DNA of 64,000 nucleotides from Minisyncoccia bacterium (GCA_049720475.1 JBNASH010000035.1:20015-84014); one strand, 5' to 3'. Counted from the first letter of the stretch, positions 57,460-62,028 are shown. The notes: a model not told the origin generated them from the letters alone. Made by a program: numbers and translations.

Positions 57460-59337
57460 TTATTCTTTGACAAGTTTTTTCAAAATTTCTTGAAGCTCTT
57501 CTTCAGAAAAGAAATTAATGGTAATCTTTCCCTTATTGCCGCGTCTTTTCACTTCAACTTTTGTGCCAAAAATTTCTTCTAATTTTCTTTCAATCTCTTT
57601 TTCCAAAGCATCACCCAAATCGCTGACTGAAACTTCTTGATGTTTTTGAACAAACTGACCAAGAGGCATTTCTAAAATACGCCTTGTTAAAATTTCAGTT
57701 TCTCTCACCGTTAATTTTCGCGATAAAATTTCACCAAGCAATGCTCTTTGCTTTTCCGGATTTTGAATAGTCAAAAGTAAACGAGCATGTGACTCAGTAA
57801 TTTTTCCTTCTTCCAAAGCTCTTTGCGCTTCAGAAGGTAATTCTAAAAGCCGCAACATATTCGCCACATAAGCGCGACTTTTTCCAATACGTTCCGCAAT
57901 CTCTCTTTGTGGTAAACCAAATTCATCAGCTAATTTGGCAAAACCCCTAGCAGTTTCTAAAGGATTTAAATCTGCTCTTTGAATATTTTCAATAATGGCA
58001 GCTTCTAATTTTTGCCTCTCTTCCAAAGACGGCCGAACAATCGCCGGCACTCTTTCCAATCCCAATAACTGCGCCGCCCGCAATCGTCTTTCACCAGCAA
58101 TTAATTGATACTCCACTCTTCTTCCAAAGTCCGTTTCTTTCTCAATGCGCGAAACAATCAGTGGTTGTAAAATACCATATTCACGAATAGAATCAGCTAA
58201 TTCTTTAAGTGATTCATCATCAAAATTTTTTCGTGGCTGATAAGGATTGGGTTTAATTTTATCAACTTCAATTAAATATACTGCCTCCCGAATCGGACCC
58301 AAATCTTCTTCAATTAAATTCTTCATTTCTTCTTTTTGTTCTGTTTTTTCTTCAATCTTTTCTTCAGTCTTTGGCTCATTAAAAATTATTTCTTTTTCAT
58401 TTCTTTCGCTCTTTAATTCTGGCCATAAAATTTCTGGATAAATACCTTGTTTAATCAAATTGCTAATCGCTTCCTGAACTTTTGGTTTGTCTTCGGGATA
58501 AGTCACGCCAAACCATTTATCTTCAGTTGGCAAAACTGTTACCTGAGCTCGTTTTTCGCGCAATAATTGACCAATAATTTCAGAAATATAAAATTCGCTT
58601 TTCTCTGGATTTTGAAGATTTAATAAAAATTTATAAAAACGCGTTTCCAATTCATAAAAGATACTGGGCGTAAAACCAAAAAAATTCATTGAAACAATTT
58701 CATCGCCCGTTAATTTCAACCAGGTATCAAATTCCTCAAATTTAATTCCATCTTCGAATTTTTGAATTTTTGTTCGTTCTTTTAAATCAATTAAATATCC
58801 TTCGGGTGAAATTTCACAAACGCCGCGCGAGACAGCACCGTAATCTGAAAGAGTGTTTTTCAATTGATAACCAATCATTAAATAGTGGTACAAACCTTCT
58901 TCATCACTTAAATCTTTTAACGCATCGGCCATTTTAATAAAAGCATCGCGACCATAAAAATCATCGGAATTAATAATAGCAAAGTTAGAGTCAATAACAT
59001 TTTGGCAAAGCAAAATTGCATGGCCCGTTCCCCAAGGTTTCGTTCGGTTGGCCGACAAAGAAAACCATGATGGTAATCCTTTATTTAAATCTTGAAAAAC
59101 ATAAGAAACTTTAAAAATTTTTTCAGCTTGATTACCAATCTTTTCTTTAAAAATTTCTTCTATATCTTTGCGAATCACAAAAACAACATGATTAAAACCA
59201 GCCTGTTTGGCATCATAAAGAGAATAGTCAATGATTAATTCTCCATTAGGACCAACTGGATCAACTTGTTTTAATCCGCCATAGCGACTGCCCATTCCAG
59301 CCGCCAAAACTACCAATGTTAAATCTTTACTTTCCAT
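57460..59337 (-). CDS. parB: In-frame fusion: N-terminal sugar-phosphate nucleotidyltransferase domain (about 337 aa) plus a C-terminal complete ParB/Spo0J (about 288 aa). An internal ATG at 58326 would give a standalone ParB.
   Basis: N-terminal LAAGMGSRYGGLKQ ... KPWGTGHA (GlmU/RmlA/GalU-type). C-terminal IKPNPYQPRKNFD, GERRLRAA ParB box, HTH REIAERIGKSRAYVANMLRLL. Lys/Glu-rich linker with no stop codon. Confidence 0.7.
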   Translation of the reverse strand: MESKDLTLVVLAAGMGSRYGGLKQVDPVGPNGELIIDYSLYDAKQAGFNHVVFVIRKDIEEIFKEKIGNQAEKIFKVSYVFQDLNKGLPSWFSLSANRTKPWGTGHAILLCQNVIDSNFAIINSDDFYGRDAFIKMADALKDLSDEEGLYHYLMIGYQLKNTLSDYGAVSRGVCEISPEGYLIDLKERTKIQKFEDGIKFEEFDTWLKLTGDEIVSMNFFGFTPSIFYELETRFYKFLLNLQNPEKSEFYISEIIGQLLREKRAQVTVLPTEDKWFGVTYPEDKPKVQEAISNLIKQGIYPEILWPELKSERNEKEIIFNEPKTEEKIEEKTEQKEEMKNLIEEDLGPIREAVYLIEVDKIKPNPYQPRKNFDDESLKELADSIREYGILQPLIVSRIEKETDFGRRVEYQLIAGERRLRAAQLLGLERVPAIVRPSLEERQKLEAAIIENIQRADLNPLETARGFAKLADEFGLPQREIAERIGKSRAYVANMLRLLELPSEAQRALEEGKITESHARLLLTIQNPEKQRALLGEILSRKLTVRETEILTRRILEMPLGQFVQKHQEVSVSDLGDALEKEIERKLEEIFGTKVEVKRRGNKGKITINFFSEEELQEILKKLVKE

Positions 59338-59454
59338 AACTTTTATTTTATTAAAGCAAAAAAATAAACAATTGACAAGAAAATTTTTTAAAATTAAAAT
59401 TGAATTGTTGCTACTTGAAAAAATTTTAGAATACGCTAAATTTTTATAAAGATT

Positions 59455-59540
59455 GCCCAGGTGGCGGAATTGGCATACGCGGAGGACTTAAAATCCTCTG
59501 TCTTTCAAAAGACTTGTGGGTTCGAGTCCCACCCTGGGCA
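59455..59540 (+). tRNA. tRNA-Leu (anticodon TAA), class II
   Basis: Acceptor GCCCAGG/CCTGGGC, anticodon stem GAGGA/TCCTC, loop CTTAAAA, variable arm TGTCTTTCAAAAGACT, T-arm GTGGGTTCGAGTCCCAC. Confidence 0.85.
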
Positions 59541-59740
59541 CAAATGAGCGAAGCGAATTTGGGCCCAGGGAGAAAGCCAACTGCTTGGCTTTCGTTGGGA
59601 CGAGAAAGCCCGCAGCGATGGGCGAGTTTGAGCGAAGCGAAAGGCGAGCACCGCGAGGGGCGGCCTGCGAGAATCTGCCCTGCCTGCCGGTAGGCAGGCG
59701 TCAGGCAGATTACTTGTAGGCGAGTCCCACCCTGGGCACA
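59541..59740 (+). other. GC-rich, hairpin-dense roughly 175-bp insert ending in a second copy (59722-59740) of the tRNA-Leu 3' end GAGTCCCACCCTGGGCACA. Candidate integration scar, miniature element or tRNA-linked structured RNA.
   Basis: 19-nt perfect direct repeat. Local GC far above its surroundings. Internal repeat TGAGCGAAGCGAA at 59545 and 59629. Hairpins GAAAGCCAA/TTGGCTTTC and ATCTGCC-CT-GCCTGCC-GGTA-GGCAGGC-GTCA-GGCAGAT. Also contains a copy of the acceptor 5' strand GCCCAGG at 59561. Confidence 0.5.
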
Positions 59741-59790
59741 TTAGAATCTATAATTTAGAAAGTAGAATTTAGAAGTTAGAATTTGGGATT
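59741..59790. repeat. Degenerate tandem repeats of (T)TAGAAT(T)T, about 6 copies
   Basis: Visible periodicity immediately after the duplicated tRNA end. Confidence 0.5.
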
Positions 59791-59795
59791 TAGTA

Positions 59796-59828
59796 GGCCA
59801 ACGGATATCCTTTGGACATCCGTTGGCC
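59796..59828. other. 15-bp near-perfect stem-loop GGCCAACGGATATCC-TTT-GGACATCCGTTGGCC with no adjacent T-run. Possible recombination or protein-binding site.
   Basis: Inverted repeat read directly. Confidence 0.4.
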
Positions 59829-59835
59829 TAAAATT

Positions 59836-59863
59836 AAATAAAAAAGGCGGCTACGCCGCCTTT
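59836..59863 (-). terminator. Rho-independent terminator of the 93-aa membrane-protein gene
   Basis: GGCGGC-TAC-GCCGCC followed on the minus strand by TTTTTTTATTT. Confidence 0.55.
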
Positions 59864-60143
59864 AGCTCAAAATTAAAATTATAATCACCACTAAAATAAC
59901 AACTTCTACGACAACAGTCACCGCTGGCCACCGTTCATAGCAATACCGGTGAAGTTCTTTCAATTTTCTAAAAACAAATGTTACTATTGAACAAATAACA
60001 TCAACTATAAACTGAAAAATAGCCTTAAACATTTTTCCCAATGCCCTATTTACTTCCTTGGTTTTGCCAAAAATAATGGCAAAACCATAAACTAAAATAA
60101 TCGGCAATAGGAAAAATGATAATAAATTTATCAGCTGTTGCAT
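59862..60143 (-). CDS. Small hypothetical membrane protein (93 aa, 2-3 TM)
   Basis: Strong SD AAGGAGGAT 4 nt upstream of the ATG. Hydrophobic helices. Confidence 0.5.
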   Translation of the reverse strand: MQQLINLLSFFLLPIILVYGFAIIFGKTKEVNRALGKMFKAIFQFIVDVICSIVTFVFRKLKELHRYCYERWPAVTVVVEVVILVVIIILILS

Positions 60144-60218
60144 TTTTATCCTCCTTTTTCAAGAATCTAATTTTATAATATAATTTTTTAAAAATTTGTC
60201 AATAATATAAAAATCTAA

Positions 60219-60252
60219 TAAAAGAAAGCCCCCAACTTAGGTTGGGGGTTGT
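60219..60252. terminator. Rho-independent terminator (CCCCCAAC-TTAG-GTTGGGGG) downstream of the 461-aa gene
   Basis: GC stem flanked by an A-run and a T-run. Confidence 0.55.
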
Positions 60253-60272
60253 TATTTTTATGCGTATTAGTA

Positions 60273-61658
60273 TTATGCGTAGTCTTGAGCTTTCAACACG
60301 ATCTTTTTACCTCTCTTCAATTCAACATCATACGCGTTTTTAGAATCAACCCTCTCTGTTTTTTGGGGGGTAATTTTGTAAACATACCACCCCCACTGTC
60401 TACCTTCTCCAGCACAATAATCAATTTGACTTTTAACCACCACTACTGCTACTTTCTTTCTGTAATCGATGGCCTTATCAATTACCTGAGCCTGAACATA
60501 AGGAATGTCGGAATTCGTGTAAGTGGGAATATTCAGAGGATAACCAGCCAAAATATAACTTGGCATAGTGGCGTTACGAGTTTCGGCTTTGAGAATCTTC
60601 TGAATTTCAGCTTCCACATGTCTCTTAAACTCTTCCTTTTCTTCAAGAGAAATTGATGTCGAATTATCTTCTCTCTCGGCTACTGAGAATGTATGCTTGA
60701 GAGAGAAATTATAATGGGAATTAATCAACACTACTTCAACCCGATCTTTGGTAATTTTAGATATGCGCACATCGTTGAAATTATAAGCTGGTCTGTCAGC
60801 ATGTTGATCATAAGCATCCCGCCATTTGTAATACGTCTTTGCTCTTTGACCATCCCTGAACACTATAACATCGTGACCATATTCAGAACCGCCGGAACCA
60901 TAATAGAACCATCTGGAAACAAGAAAAACAACTACCCTATGCTCGAGATCATAAGCTATTTTTACAATTTCATTATCAATTTCCTGAACCACTGCCCAAA
61001 ATTCTGGAAGAATCGAAAGAACAGGAGTTAGATCGAGCAAATTCAACTGCTCCATTATCTTTTTCTGCTCTTTCAAACATCGAATCTGATTTTCGATCTT
61101 TTCAAGTTGTTTCTGCAAATCTTCTTTCTGCTCATTCTGTTCTAAAAGTGCAGGGTATTTTTTTTGGATCTTTTTTAGAACTTCTACCTGAGCTTTTTTA
61201 AAATCTTCCGATGAAATTTCATATTGCCGATCACCGCAGAATGTCAGCCATTTTTCTAGTTCTAGAAACGTTATAACTCTTTCACCCTCGTGACAACCAC
61301 CACAAGTAGTAGGACGCTTGAAACTCCCGAAACCACCACATCCGTTGTAAATAGAAAGATTTTTAAGGCGAGACCCGATAATAATTTTCTCATCATCGGG
61401 CAGTTTTTTCATAGCCTGCAGACACTTTTCAAGCAACGCAAGTCGACTTTCTCTCCGACTATCTTTATATTTTTGCTGCCATTGAACAATTTCTTCTTGA
61501 AGGCTAGCGGGGAATCGTTTTTCAATTAGAATATTTCCCAAATTTTCAACCACATCGAAGTTTTCGAATTTTCTCAACTGTTCCTCAACTTTTTTGTACT
61601 GTGACTCGAGCTGAACAATTTTTTCCGTATAATCTTTTAAAGTTTTTAATTCGGCCAT
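60273..61658 (-). CDS. Hypothetical protein, 461 aa, with an N-terminal coiled coil and a Cys cluster (NGCGGFGSFKRPTTCGGCHEGE)
   Basis: Long ORF with strong SD AAGGAGGT. Codon usage and GC appear slightly atypical relative to neighbouring housekeeping genes (by eye). No recognisable family. Confidence 0.5.
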   Translation of the reverse strand: MAELKTLKDYTEKIVQLESQYKKVEEQLRKFENFDVVENLGNILIEKRFPASLQEEIVQWQQKYKDSRRESRLALLEKCLQAMKKLPDDEKIIIGSRLKNLSIYNGCGGFGSFKRPTTCGGCHEGERVITFLELEKWLTFCGDRQYEISSEDFKKAQVEVLKKIQKKYPALLEQNEQKEDLQKQLEKIENQIRCLKEQKKIMEQLNLLDLTPVLSILPEFWAVVQEIDNEIVKIAYDLEHRVVVFLVSRWFYYGSGGSEYGHDVIVFRDGQRAKTYYKWRDAYDQHADRPAYNFNDVRISKITKDRVEVVLINSHYNFSLKHTFSVAEREDNSTSISLEEKEEFKRHVEAEIQKILKAETRNATMPSYILAGYPLNIPTYTNSDIPYVQAQVIDKAIDYRKKVAVVVVKSQIDYCAGEGRQWGWYVYKITPQKTERVDSKNAYDVELKRGKKIVLKAQDYA

Positions 61659-61800
61659 GGTAAACCTCCTTGGCCTTACTACTCTTCTCTACTTAAACCA
61701 CTCCCTTTCGAGATTATGGCGAGAGAAGAGAGGCCGCTCACTTCGTGAGCAGTATAATGAACTGAATAATATTTTTCAGCTCAATATACTGCTCACGAAT
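61659..61800 (-). promoter_or_regulatory. Structured 5' leader of the 461-aa gene, with two large hairpins
   Basis: Hairpin 1 pairs GTGAGCAGTATA with TATACTGCTCAC and has an inner stem. Hairpin 2 pairs CTCTTCTCT with AGAGAAGAG, with its 3' arm abutting the SD. Confidence 0.4.
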
Positions 61801-62028
61801 AGTTTGGAAGGTTTCTTTAAAAAATATCCCTTATTAAATTTTTAAATAGCTCTGCCACAAATCTAAATGAGCAAAATTGTCGCTCAAAGAGAATTCCGAA
61901 AAAACGATAAACGTTAAAAGTATTGAAATGTTTTTTCTCAAAATTCTTTACACGATTTTATTATAGCAAACAATATCCATTTTGTCAAGTCTATACATTT
62001 TGCCTCCAAAATGTTATAATAAAAATGT

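Follow-up and report, generated by a model that had tools for sequence, protein, structure and literature searches.

The stretch of DNA described here, a window of 64,000 nucleotides from a Minisyncoccia bacterium (Patescibacteria) with a G+C content of 33.8%, contains a complete tRNA-Leu(UAA) gene that is directly followed by a short GC-rich segment and by a second copy of the tRNA 3' end (Table 1). We consider it probable that positions 59541-59740, which include this second copy, constitute the gene for a structured non-coding RNA of about 200 nt, belonging to an uncatalogued family located directly 3' of tRNA genes in Patescibacteria. The tRNA-Leu gene had already been placed at 59455 in an earlier inspection of the locus, hereafter the sequence-only reading, and this call was confirmed by both ARAGORN and Rfam; CCA is not encoded. 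Promoter, tRNA, element and terminator hairpins succeed each other in this order, with no plus-strand terminator between the tRNA and the element. The promoter block (CAATTGACAAGAAA...TTAAAAT) is kept in all relatives read, and this promoter drives the tRNA-Leu gene and, by inference, the trailing element as well.

Table 1. Features of the tRNA-Leu(UAA) locus and of the trailing element, with positions counted from the first letter of the window
Feature	Positions	Strand	Remarks
Fusion protein gene (625 amino acids [aa]; nucleoside triphosphate [NTP]-transferase/ParB)	57460-59337	-	Adjoins tRNA-Leu, divergent
Sigma-70-type promoter, TTGACA-17-TAAAAT	59372-59400	+	11/12 in promoter scan
tRNA-Leu(UAA)	59455-59540/41	+	ARAGORN and Rfam RF00005, 58.6 bits; complete gene
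Direct repeat, copy 1	59523-59542	+	T-loop from C56, T-stem 3' strand, acceptor 3' strand, discriminator A and 2 further nt
H1, trailer hairpin, CAAAU-GA-GC-GAA-GC-GA-AUUUG	59541-59561	+	Begins directly after the discriminator
P1, 5' strand, GCCCAGGG	59563-59570	+	Pairs with 59730-59737 (CCCUGGGC); equals the tRNA acceptor 5' strand plus G
H2, 9-bp hairpin with CUGC loop, GAAAGCCAACUGCUUGGCUUUC	59572-59593	+	Most conserved module
P3, 5' strand, UGGGAC	59596-59601	+	Pairs with 59724-59729, GUCCCA
Domain II, long irregular hairpin	59609-59659	+	P4, P5, P6 and P7, capped by H4
Helices of domain II	P4 59609-11/59657-59; P5 59615-17/59652-54; P6 59622-23/59648-49; P7 59626-29/59642-45	+	
H4, variable cap hairpin (GCGAAGC mini-hairpin)	59630-59641	+	Differs in each lineage
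H5, long hairpin	59663-59721	+	Outer 9 bp, bulged A59712, inner 8 bp, conserved GUCA loop
20-nt palindrome, CCTGCCTGCCGGTAGGCAGG (CCTGCCTRCCGGYAGGCAGG)	59679-59698		Inserted in the H5 loop
Direct repeat, copy 2	59721-59740	+	3' tail of the element; 3' strands of H5 (C59721), P3 and P1, then A-CA
TTAGAA-type degenerate repeats, three, 14-nt-spaced	59741-59786	+	Flank, outside the conserved element
Hairpins 59794-59830 and 59843-59863 (G+C), with T-runs	59794-59863		

The end of the tRNA gene and the end of the element form an exact direct repeat of 20 nt (CGAGTCCCACCCTGGGCACA), one base longer than the 19-nt duplication first noticed. At up to three mismatches, this sequence matched elsewhere in the window only in the two other tRNA-Leu genes (chance expectation, 0.00), and no third copy bounding a larger island (59543-62028) was found. 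The segment between the repeats measures 178 nt, rather than the 175 bp given before, has a G+C content of about 68% and is indeed the most GC-rich stretch of the window, with G+C values of 0.59-0.68 in 100-nt windows against 0.338 overall. It contains the additional copy of the acceptor 5' strand (GCCCAGG), which lies at 59563 and not at 59561 as first reported, and the internal repeat was recovered in two copies (TGAGCGAAGCGAA, at 59545 and 59629). The impression of strong structure was also borne out by a minimum free energy (MFE) of -104 kcal/mol on the plus strand (z = -6.2 against shuffled sequences), compared with -90.7 kcal/mol on the minus strand. Downstream, the TAGAAT-type tandem repeats are present as described, while the supposedly perfect 15-bp hairpin next to them has instead 17-nt arms (59794-59810/59814-59830) that are 94% complementary. 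These TTAGAA-type repeats have no counterpart after the element in L119, L129, L136 and L154, where L-numbers designate related loci or contigs, the syntenic ones having been fetched through the adjacent fusion protein.

Rfam 15 returned no family match for the insert, either at the gathering threshold or, over 59350-59950, at E <= 10, in agreement with the earlier failure to assign it to a known non-coding RNA, and recognized tRNAs only in the window and in L082, L086, L089, L091, L117, L122, L124, L125, L127 and L129. ARAGORN, run with introns, with lowered thresholds and in transfer-messenger RNA (tmRNA) mode, found neither a second tRNA nor a tmRNA. Besides, BLASTN of the insert against phage and plasmid collections gave nothing significant, and no homologue of its open reading frames (ORFs) or six-frame pseudo-proteins was found among 5.8 billion proteins, the ORFs being frame artefacts. 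No integrase domain was found in the ORFs neighbouring the tRNA and the element. Scans of IMG/VR with the 20-mer and with the junction gave zero matches, and a 17-mer matched only phage tRNA-Leu genes and two attP-like fragments in that collection. Two viral contigs, L097 (3430-3490) and L101 (4090-4150), hold only the 3' two-thirds of a tRNA-Leu(UAA), from the anticodon stem onward, and these fragments look like attP sites of phages integrating at the anticodon loop of this tRNA. Literature searches in the library consulted found no description of this tRNA-linked RNA.

Elements at the same site, that is, after tRNA-Leu(UAA) and divergent from the fusion gene, occur in at least four other lineages of Minisyncoccia/Paceibacterota, represented by L119, L154, L129/L130 and L136/L137. 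L119 and L154 come from the 82-83% lineage, L129/L130 from two NCBI metagenome-assembled genomes (MAGs) of the 76-77% lineage and L136/L137 from two JGI samples, and the carrier loci derive from independent JGI, ENA, NCBI and Logan assemblies. The sequence-only reading had held that a conserved, known non-coding RNA in related genomes would speak against an insertion; the arrangement was indeed found in relatives, but the RNA is not a known one. In L117, which belongs to the lineage of L119, the 5' part of the element is present and its 3' third is replaced by other DNA, and partial copies were seen at contig ends in L131-133 and L138-139. Perfect repeats are found in L154, L136 and L137, the latter two being from different samples. 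The tail of the element equals that of the tRNA in the window, L136 and L154, and the identity extends 7 nt (L154) or 47 nt (L136) into a partial second copy of the element. This extended identity indicates gene conversion or unequal crossing-over between the copies, which would also yield precise deletions such as the one seen in L140.

Other relatives have the tRNA directly followed by the terminator hairpin, without the element, namely L115 and L116 (85% amino-acid identity), L120 (80%), the pair L001 and L128 (77-79%), and L002. An empty site consisting of tRNA-Leu alone with the same flank, which the sequence-only reading had proposed looking for, was found in its cleanest form in L140, where the tRNA is joined to CAGTATTAAACTTTCAGG, a flank located after the element in the close relative L129. 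Because relatives show such precise empty sites, there is a presence/absence polymorphism bounded by the two repeat copies. In L129 (2300-2630, minus strand) and in L140 a further GC-rich structured stretch precedes the terminator, with GCCGCGUGAAGCGCGGC and a T-arm-like GGUUCGAGCC; it is conserved between both loci and lies downstream of the element in L129 and of the bare tRNA in L140. L114 shows 99.4% DNA identity over 2.9 kb up to 59544 and then continues into an unrelated arsenite-permease gene. Its positions 1-1270 carry this ArsP permease gene in place of the element and the 93-aa ORF, and no ArsP homologue is present in the window. On the host-protein tree, carriers are interleaved with non-carriers; nevertheless, the divergence of the element parallels that of its hosts.

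The structure was derived with RNAalifold followed by manual refinement, and covariation shows a shared fold in which the trailer hairpin H1 is followed by a helix, P1, enclosing H2 and P3, and P3 in turn encloses two long arms, domain II and H5. H1 consists of seven pairs that are 100% paired in four sequences, with three double changes (U-A/C-G; G-C/A-U; C-G/U-A), and its mini-hairpin reads G-C-GAA-G-C, A-C-GAA-G-U or A-U-GAA-A-U depending on the lineage. H2 is also 100% paired and shows an A-U to C-G change in L129/L136; in the more distant L088 its stem has been replaced (UAUGAC/GUCAUA) and CAACUGCUUG is retained. Within domain II, the middle pair of P4 changes from C-G to G-C in L129/L136, and an invariant GCAG at 59612-59615 may be in contact with the CUGC loop of H2. 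H5 has 16 pairs, again 100% paired, three of them with double changes. The four one-sided changes in its outer stem all convert G·U to A-U or C-G to U·G, leaving pairs that form on the plus strand only, and its inner stem is formed by AAUCUGCC/GGCAGAUU in one lineage and by AAAUUUCC/GGAAAUUU in another, L154 adding a C-G to G-C change. The palindrome of the H5 loop is present in the element of this genome only, being absent from that of L119, L129, L136 and L154. It is a small dispersed repeat of these bacteria, found also in L137 and at 191-210 and 507-526 of L136, where the copies lie inside larger GTCATCCTGAG...CTCAGAATGAC inverted-repeat units.

The 3' strands of P3 and P1 follow each other without a gap and together copy the end of the T-loop, the T-stem 3' strand, the acceptor 3' strand and the discriminator of the neighbouring tRNA, and P3 and P1 are therefore expected to stack as an acceptor/T-arm-like minihelix ending in A-CA. 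The 3' strand of P3 comprises the final 2 nt of the T-loop copy and the T-stem 3' strand copy; this helix is 87.5% paired and takes the form AGGAU/AUCCU in L088, from its tRNA-Tyr tail, and GGGAC/GUCCC in L082. P1 is kept in the relatives, partly in a shifted register, as GGGAG/CUCCC in L119, CG-A-GGAG/CUCC-A-CG in L129 and GCGU.CGGG/CCUGACGC in L088. In L119 and L129 the tails have drifted from the tRNA sequence to GAUUCCUCCCGAGGACACA and AAGUCCCUCCACGGGCACC, respectively, and the 5' segments have changed as well, so that P1 (in a partly shifted register) and P3 pair with their own tail and fit it better than that of the tRNA. To judge from these sequences, the conserved property is the pairing and not the DNA identity of the repeat.

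Across the four distinct sequences the model comprises 59 pairs, with standard pairs in 94.4% of 234 cells and ten pairs changed on both sides, a degree of covariation that was reached by none of 500 shuffles (0/500). Controls slid by 1-3 columns were paired in only 30-44% of cells, with at most one double-change pair. When L082 and L088 were added, in an alignment fitted to the model, 93.1% of cells were paired and 29 pairs showed double changes (0/500 shuffles). Moreover, the alignment contains 19 G·U cells, and 221/234 cells pair on the plus strand against 204 on the minus strand; this strand-specific pairing argues that the selected structure is an RNA on the tRNA strand. The element of the window is 82, 78 and 84% identical to those of L119, L129 and L136, and the latter two are 89% identical to each other, whereas, in comparisons of the window with the same three loci, identity at third codon positions in the adjacent gene is 58-61%. 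By this measure the element is conserved above neutral sites and appears to be under purifying as well as structural selection. Among the possibilities listed by the sequence-only reading, a small structured RNA that is linked to the tRNA and combines an acceptor-like stem with a T-arm remnant is the one that these data favour, being conserved with compensatory changes in several lineages.

A covariance model built from the four sequences (R1) extended the family to more distant loci, scoring 33.5 bits in L088 and 25.6 bits in L082/L092/L095, compared with a best background score of 12.5 bits in 1.17 Mb of unrelated bacterial DNA. L082, L088 and also L089 had been obtained from a metagenome scan with an architecture pattern (GCCCRGG ... 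tail), whose other results were mostly tRNA-Cys/tRNA-Leu neighbours and chance matches. The member in L082/L092/L095 follows tRNA-Leu(UAA) with an exact repeat of 19 nt, and that in L088 follows a tRNA-Tyr, with a tail (AAATCCTTCCTGACGC / AAAUCCUUCCUGACGC) that matches the 3' end of this tRNA-Tyr at 15/16 positions. The 5' strands of P1 and P3 in L088 are complementary to its Tyr-type tail, and MFE folding gives the same topology, in which P1 encloses H2 and a P3 with two hairpins. On these sequences, the family mimics the tail of whichever tRNA precedes it, Leu or Tyr, which is its most surprising property.

Additional arrangements were encountered around tRNA-Leu(UAA) genes. In L082 (925-995, minus strand), L092, L095, L086 and L091, an element of about 75 nt with two hairpins lies about 20 nt upstream of tRNA-Leu(UAA); it starts with a 10-nt copy of the tRNA 5' end (GCCCRGGUGG), and both hairpins covary among its three versions. 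This upstream element mirrors the 3' trailer element, and L082 has both. L089, a metagenome contig of 38% G+C, carries at 2601-2700 a tRNA-Leu(UAA) and, behind it, two GC hairpins within about 80 nt, then GGCGAGTCCCACCCTGGGCAC as an exact second copy, then a terminator. R1 does not detect this arrangement, which may be a minimal relative or an independent case. A hairpin of the H2 type (GGAAAGCCAACTGCTTGGCTTTCC), together with GACGAAAGCCGGCAG, was also seen in GC-rich IMG/VR contigs (L122, 5380-5600, minus strand; L124, 6323-6485; L134, 3001-3085; L135; L143, 10480-10640), and rhizobial plasmids carry such a hairpin, its loop being CGAT, at the 5' ends of coding sequences annotated as integrases. 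In L143, the succession GGAG-stem-CAACUGCUUG-stem-CGU is suggestive of a P1 helix enclosing H2 and P3, and no tRNA is nearby. In both the viral contigs and the rhizobial plasmids, the H2-like hairpin has the appearance of an intergenic repeat of rhizobia or of a small module that they share.

With regard to expression, the element, lying between tRNA and terminator, would be transcribed from the tRNA-Leu promoter as a 3' trailer. The hairpins at 59794-59863 are likely the end of this transcript and, at the same time, the terminator of the convergent 93-aa ORF; terminator hairpins also follow the element in L119, L082 and L089, and in L088 P1 and a U-run may themselves act as the terminator. 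The convergent orientation of the following gene excludes a role for the element as a 5' regulator. Minihelices are recognized by ribonuclease (RNase) Z and RNase P, which is the basis for the proposal that the tRNA 3'-processing machinery matures the RNA into a stable small RNA, a tentative proposal that we place somewhat short of probable. With no CCA encoded in the tRNA gene and with H1 adjoining the discriminator, a cut by RNase Z after the discriminator would create the 5' end of the RNA at H1. The 3' end would in turn be defined and protected by the tRNA-like minihelix, either by way of RNase Z and the CCA-adding enzyme or, for some members, by termination, and the conserved loops (CAACUGCUUG and GUCA) of the stable small RNA would bind a partner. 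As a direct repeat of the tRNA end, the tail would favour precise deletion of the element, as well as its gene conversion and tandem duplication, and such repeat-driven turnover would explain the empty sites, the occurrence of both perfect and degenerate repeats and the partial second copies. The repeat, which resembles the attachment sites (attL/attR) of integrative elements, is an intrinsic part of the RNA and also a source of genetic instability.

Some observations weigh against an RNA gene maintained in this way. The fusion protein next to the empty site in L140 is 94-95% identical to those of the carriers, yet the element is missing there, and it is also absent from L114 despite 99.4% DNA identity, as well as from L115, L116 and L120. 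Such a patchy distribution fits a dispensable or mobile element as well as it fits an easily lost gene. Besides, the fold is supported by five to seven distinct sequences only, with a model-fitted alignment in the case of the six sequences, and P1 is its weakest helix, being 73-78% paired with shifts of register and having no separate strand in L082. Co-transcription, processing sites and stability are all inferred.

The explanation to which the sequence-only reading had given most attention is that the repeats are the attL/attR scar of a miniature or decayed tRNA-targeting integrative element, flanking what is left of a prophage or island after its insertion into the T-loop of tRNA-Leu, in which case the structure would be incidental or would act at the DNA level. 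Its geometry stood up to comparison: like the target sites of T-loop-class integrases, the repeat begins in the T-loop (at C56, and likewise in L136, L154 and L082) and extends to the 3' end, the empty sites have exact borders (in L140 the flank seen after the element of L129 directly adjoins the tRNA), and the occurrence on the host tree is patchy. In addition, the tRNA 3' end behaves as a rearrangement hot spot at which L114 diverges exactly, partial tandem copies are present in L136 and L154, and the IMG/VR contigs L097 and L101 carry attP-like 3' parts of tRNA-Leu(UAA). Williams reportedly described T-loop-class integrase sites in tRNA genes in 2002. The concept of T-loop-class integration has been used in later work (PMC1635311). 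What did not hold is the notion of decay, given an interior under purifying and structural selection, the lack of an integrase and the persistence of pairing in the two lineages in which the DNA repeat degenerated. An integrative element would here be reduced to 178 nt without an integrase or any ORF with homologues, and would have to combine conservation above the neutral level, RNA-type covariation and one-strand G·U pairs with a divergence that tracks that of the host. Moreover, it would leave the extra 5' segments complementary to the tail unexplained, as well as the persistence of helices that use the repeat where the latter is degenerate (L119/L129), and the insert had no phage, plasmid or viral-contig match in the searches run. 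We consider this explanation improbable.

A functionless tandem partial duplicate of tRNA-Leu, that is, a hairpin-rich pseudogene padded with junk, would account for the resemblance of the tail and of the preceding ACUUGUAGG to the 3' part of a tRNA (variable arm and T-arm) and for the copied acceptor 5' strand, and such a duplication, also raised by the sequence-only reading, is probably the origin of the 3' tail. As a description of what the element is now it is very improbable, considering the conservation and covariation across lineages, an interior that resembles neither the D arm nor the anticodon arm, the occurrence of a homologous interior after tRNA-Tyr in L088 and the inability of ARAGORN, even in intron and low-score modes, to find a second tRNA. 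A small group I-like self-splicing intron in the T-loop, with a 5' exon ending at U59522, an intron at 59523-59720 (ending in G59720) and a 3' exon at 59721-59740, has even less to recommend it and was rejected on family comparisons, in spite of the fact that U59522/G59720 is the only boundary pair within the repeat ambiguity that gives an exon-end U and an intron-end G. A length of 198 nt and a high G+C content resemble the smallest tRNA group I introns. Group I introns are common in Patescibacteria tRNA genes, and those described sit in the anticodon loop (PMC13011429). The unspliced gene, however, is already a complete tRNA, and the would-be 3' exon is degenerate in L119/L129, where splicing would produce a broken tRNA. 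The U/G boundaries exist in the window and L136 only, since the nucleotide before the second copy is C in L154/L082 and A in L088 and the 5' exon of L088 would end in C, and no match to Intron_gpI (RF00028) was obtained at E <= 10 in the 59350-59950 scan. An assembly artefact, in which a k-mer loop through the 20-nt repeat imported GC-rich foreign DNA, could be suspected from a repeat length equal to k-1 for k = 21 and from the extreme contrast in G+C. The second repeat copy nonetheless recurs, with homologous elements at the same locus, in independent JGI, ENA, NCBI and Logan assemblies, which rules out this suspicion of the sequence-only reading for any practical purpose.

The genes around the locus vary in their conservation. 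The 625-aa fusion protein is identical to NCBI MGB9847951.1, and its closest species-level relatives are Paceibacterota MAGs. It joins a sugar-nucleotidyl-transferase domain to a full ParB (N-terminal, helix-turn-helix and C-terminal domains), a fusion that is kept across the clade, while L002-type relatives have ParB alone. On the other side, the conserved 93-aa and 85-aa ORFs are separated by a 461-aa ORF without a convincing Pfam domain (60273-61658, minus strand). L115, L116 and L154 lack this 461-aa ORF but keep the rest of the gene order toward the Fer4/NiFe-hydrogenase cluster; it is a second variable insertion close to tRNA-Leu. No similarity was found between this ORF and a 474-aa ORF near the truncated element of L117.

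Returning to the RNA gene, it may belong to a non-coding, RNA-structured cassette that is mobile or semi-mobile behind tRNA genes, with three segments (the tail and its two 5' partners) re-templated on the preceding tRNA and with gain, loss and amplification through repeat recombination in the absence of a recombinase of its own. We regard this extension as rather unlikely, while giving it appreciable weight; if true, the genetic elements associated with tRNA genes would include a new class, in which the phenotype under selection is an RNA that the tRNA-processing machinery matures. Patescibacteria have minimal genomes in which few non-coding RNAs are known, and a conserved, covarying RNA of 150-200 nt kept in such genomes implies a real function. 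The copy of the tRNA tail together with complementary segments, found for two tRNAs, suggests a general way of hitching an RNA to tRNA processing. Furthermore, the signature by which a direct repeat of a tRNA 3' end is taken as an integration scar can come from, and be kept by, an RNA gene, which matters for predictors of genomic islands and prophages.

Compared with known systems, the element shares with integrative elements of the T-loop class, including those resembling cis-mobilizable elements (CIMEs) with no integrase of their own, a T-loop-to-3'-end direct repeat whose copies lie in an intact tRNA and, displaced from it, at the opposite border, precise empty sites in relatives, tandem accretion and the location at a hot spot. 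It differs in its length of about 180 nt, in the absence of a recombinase or any gene, in its conserved RNA fold with segments complementary to the repeat, and in that the repeat may decay. A parallel as regards position is 3'ETS-leuZ of the glyW-cysT-leuZ transcript of Escherichia coli, reported by Lalaouna and colleagues in 2015, which is said to be about 50 nt long, to be mostly unstructured apart from its terminator and to base-pair with RyhB and RybB. This RNA has been discussed further elsewhere (PMC6191717). Both are 3' trailers of a tRNA-Leu(UAA) located between the tRNA and the terminator, and the present RNA, too, would be released by tRNA processing; it has, however, about 200 nt, five helical elements and a mimic of the tRNA end. 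As for the group I introns of Patescibacteria tRNA genes (PMC13011429), the similarities are the phylum, a length of about 200 nt and a GC-rich structured RNA in a tRNA locus that annotation misses; the present element, in contrast, follows a complete tRNA, and neither a group I core nor a conserved U or omega-G at the splice sites is present.

Finally, RNAs with tRNA-like domains that are matured by tRNA enzymes include, in addition to tmRNA, the bacterial Y RNA YrlA (PMC4201824), the MALAT1-associated mascRNA and the tRNA-miRNA-encoded RNAs (TMERs) of gammaherpesviruses (PMC4337559). Neither ARAGORN (including lowered thresholds) nor Rfam identified a tmRNA here, the acceptor being GCCCAGG, and Rfam gave no match to YrlA or another Y RNA; the T-loop is not retained, with only GAGU preceding the stem copy. 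The element resembles these RNAs in having a terminal, acceptor/T-arm-like coaxial helix made of its 5' and 3' regions with a large insertion, and probably also in being processed by RNase Z or RNase P. It differs from them in lacking a T-loop/D-loop mimic, a G3·U70 pair and a tag ORF and in that the expansion is located at the position of the T-loop. Above all, its mimic is a literal copy of the tail of the neighbouring tRNA, which changes according to whether this tRNA is Leu or Tyr.

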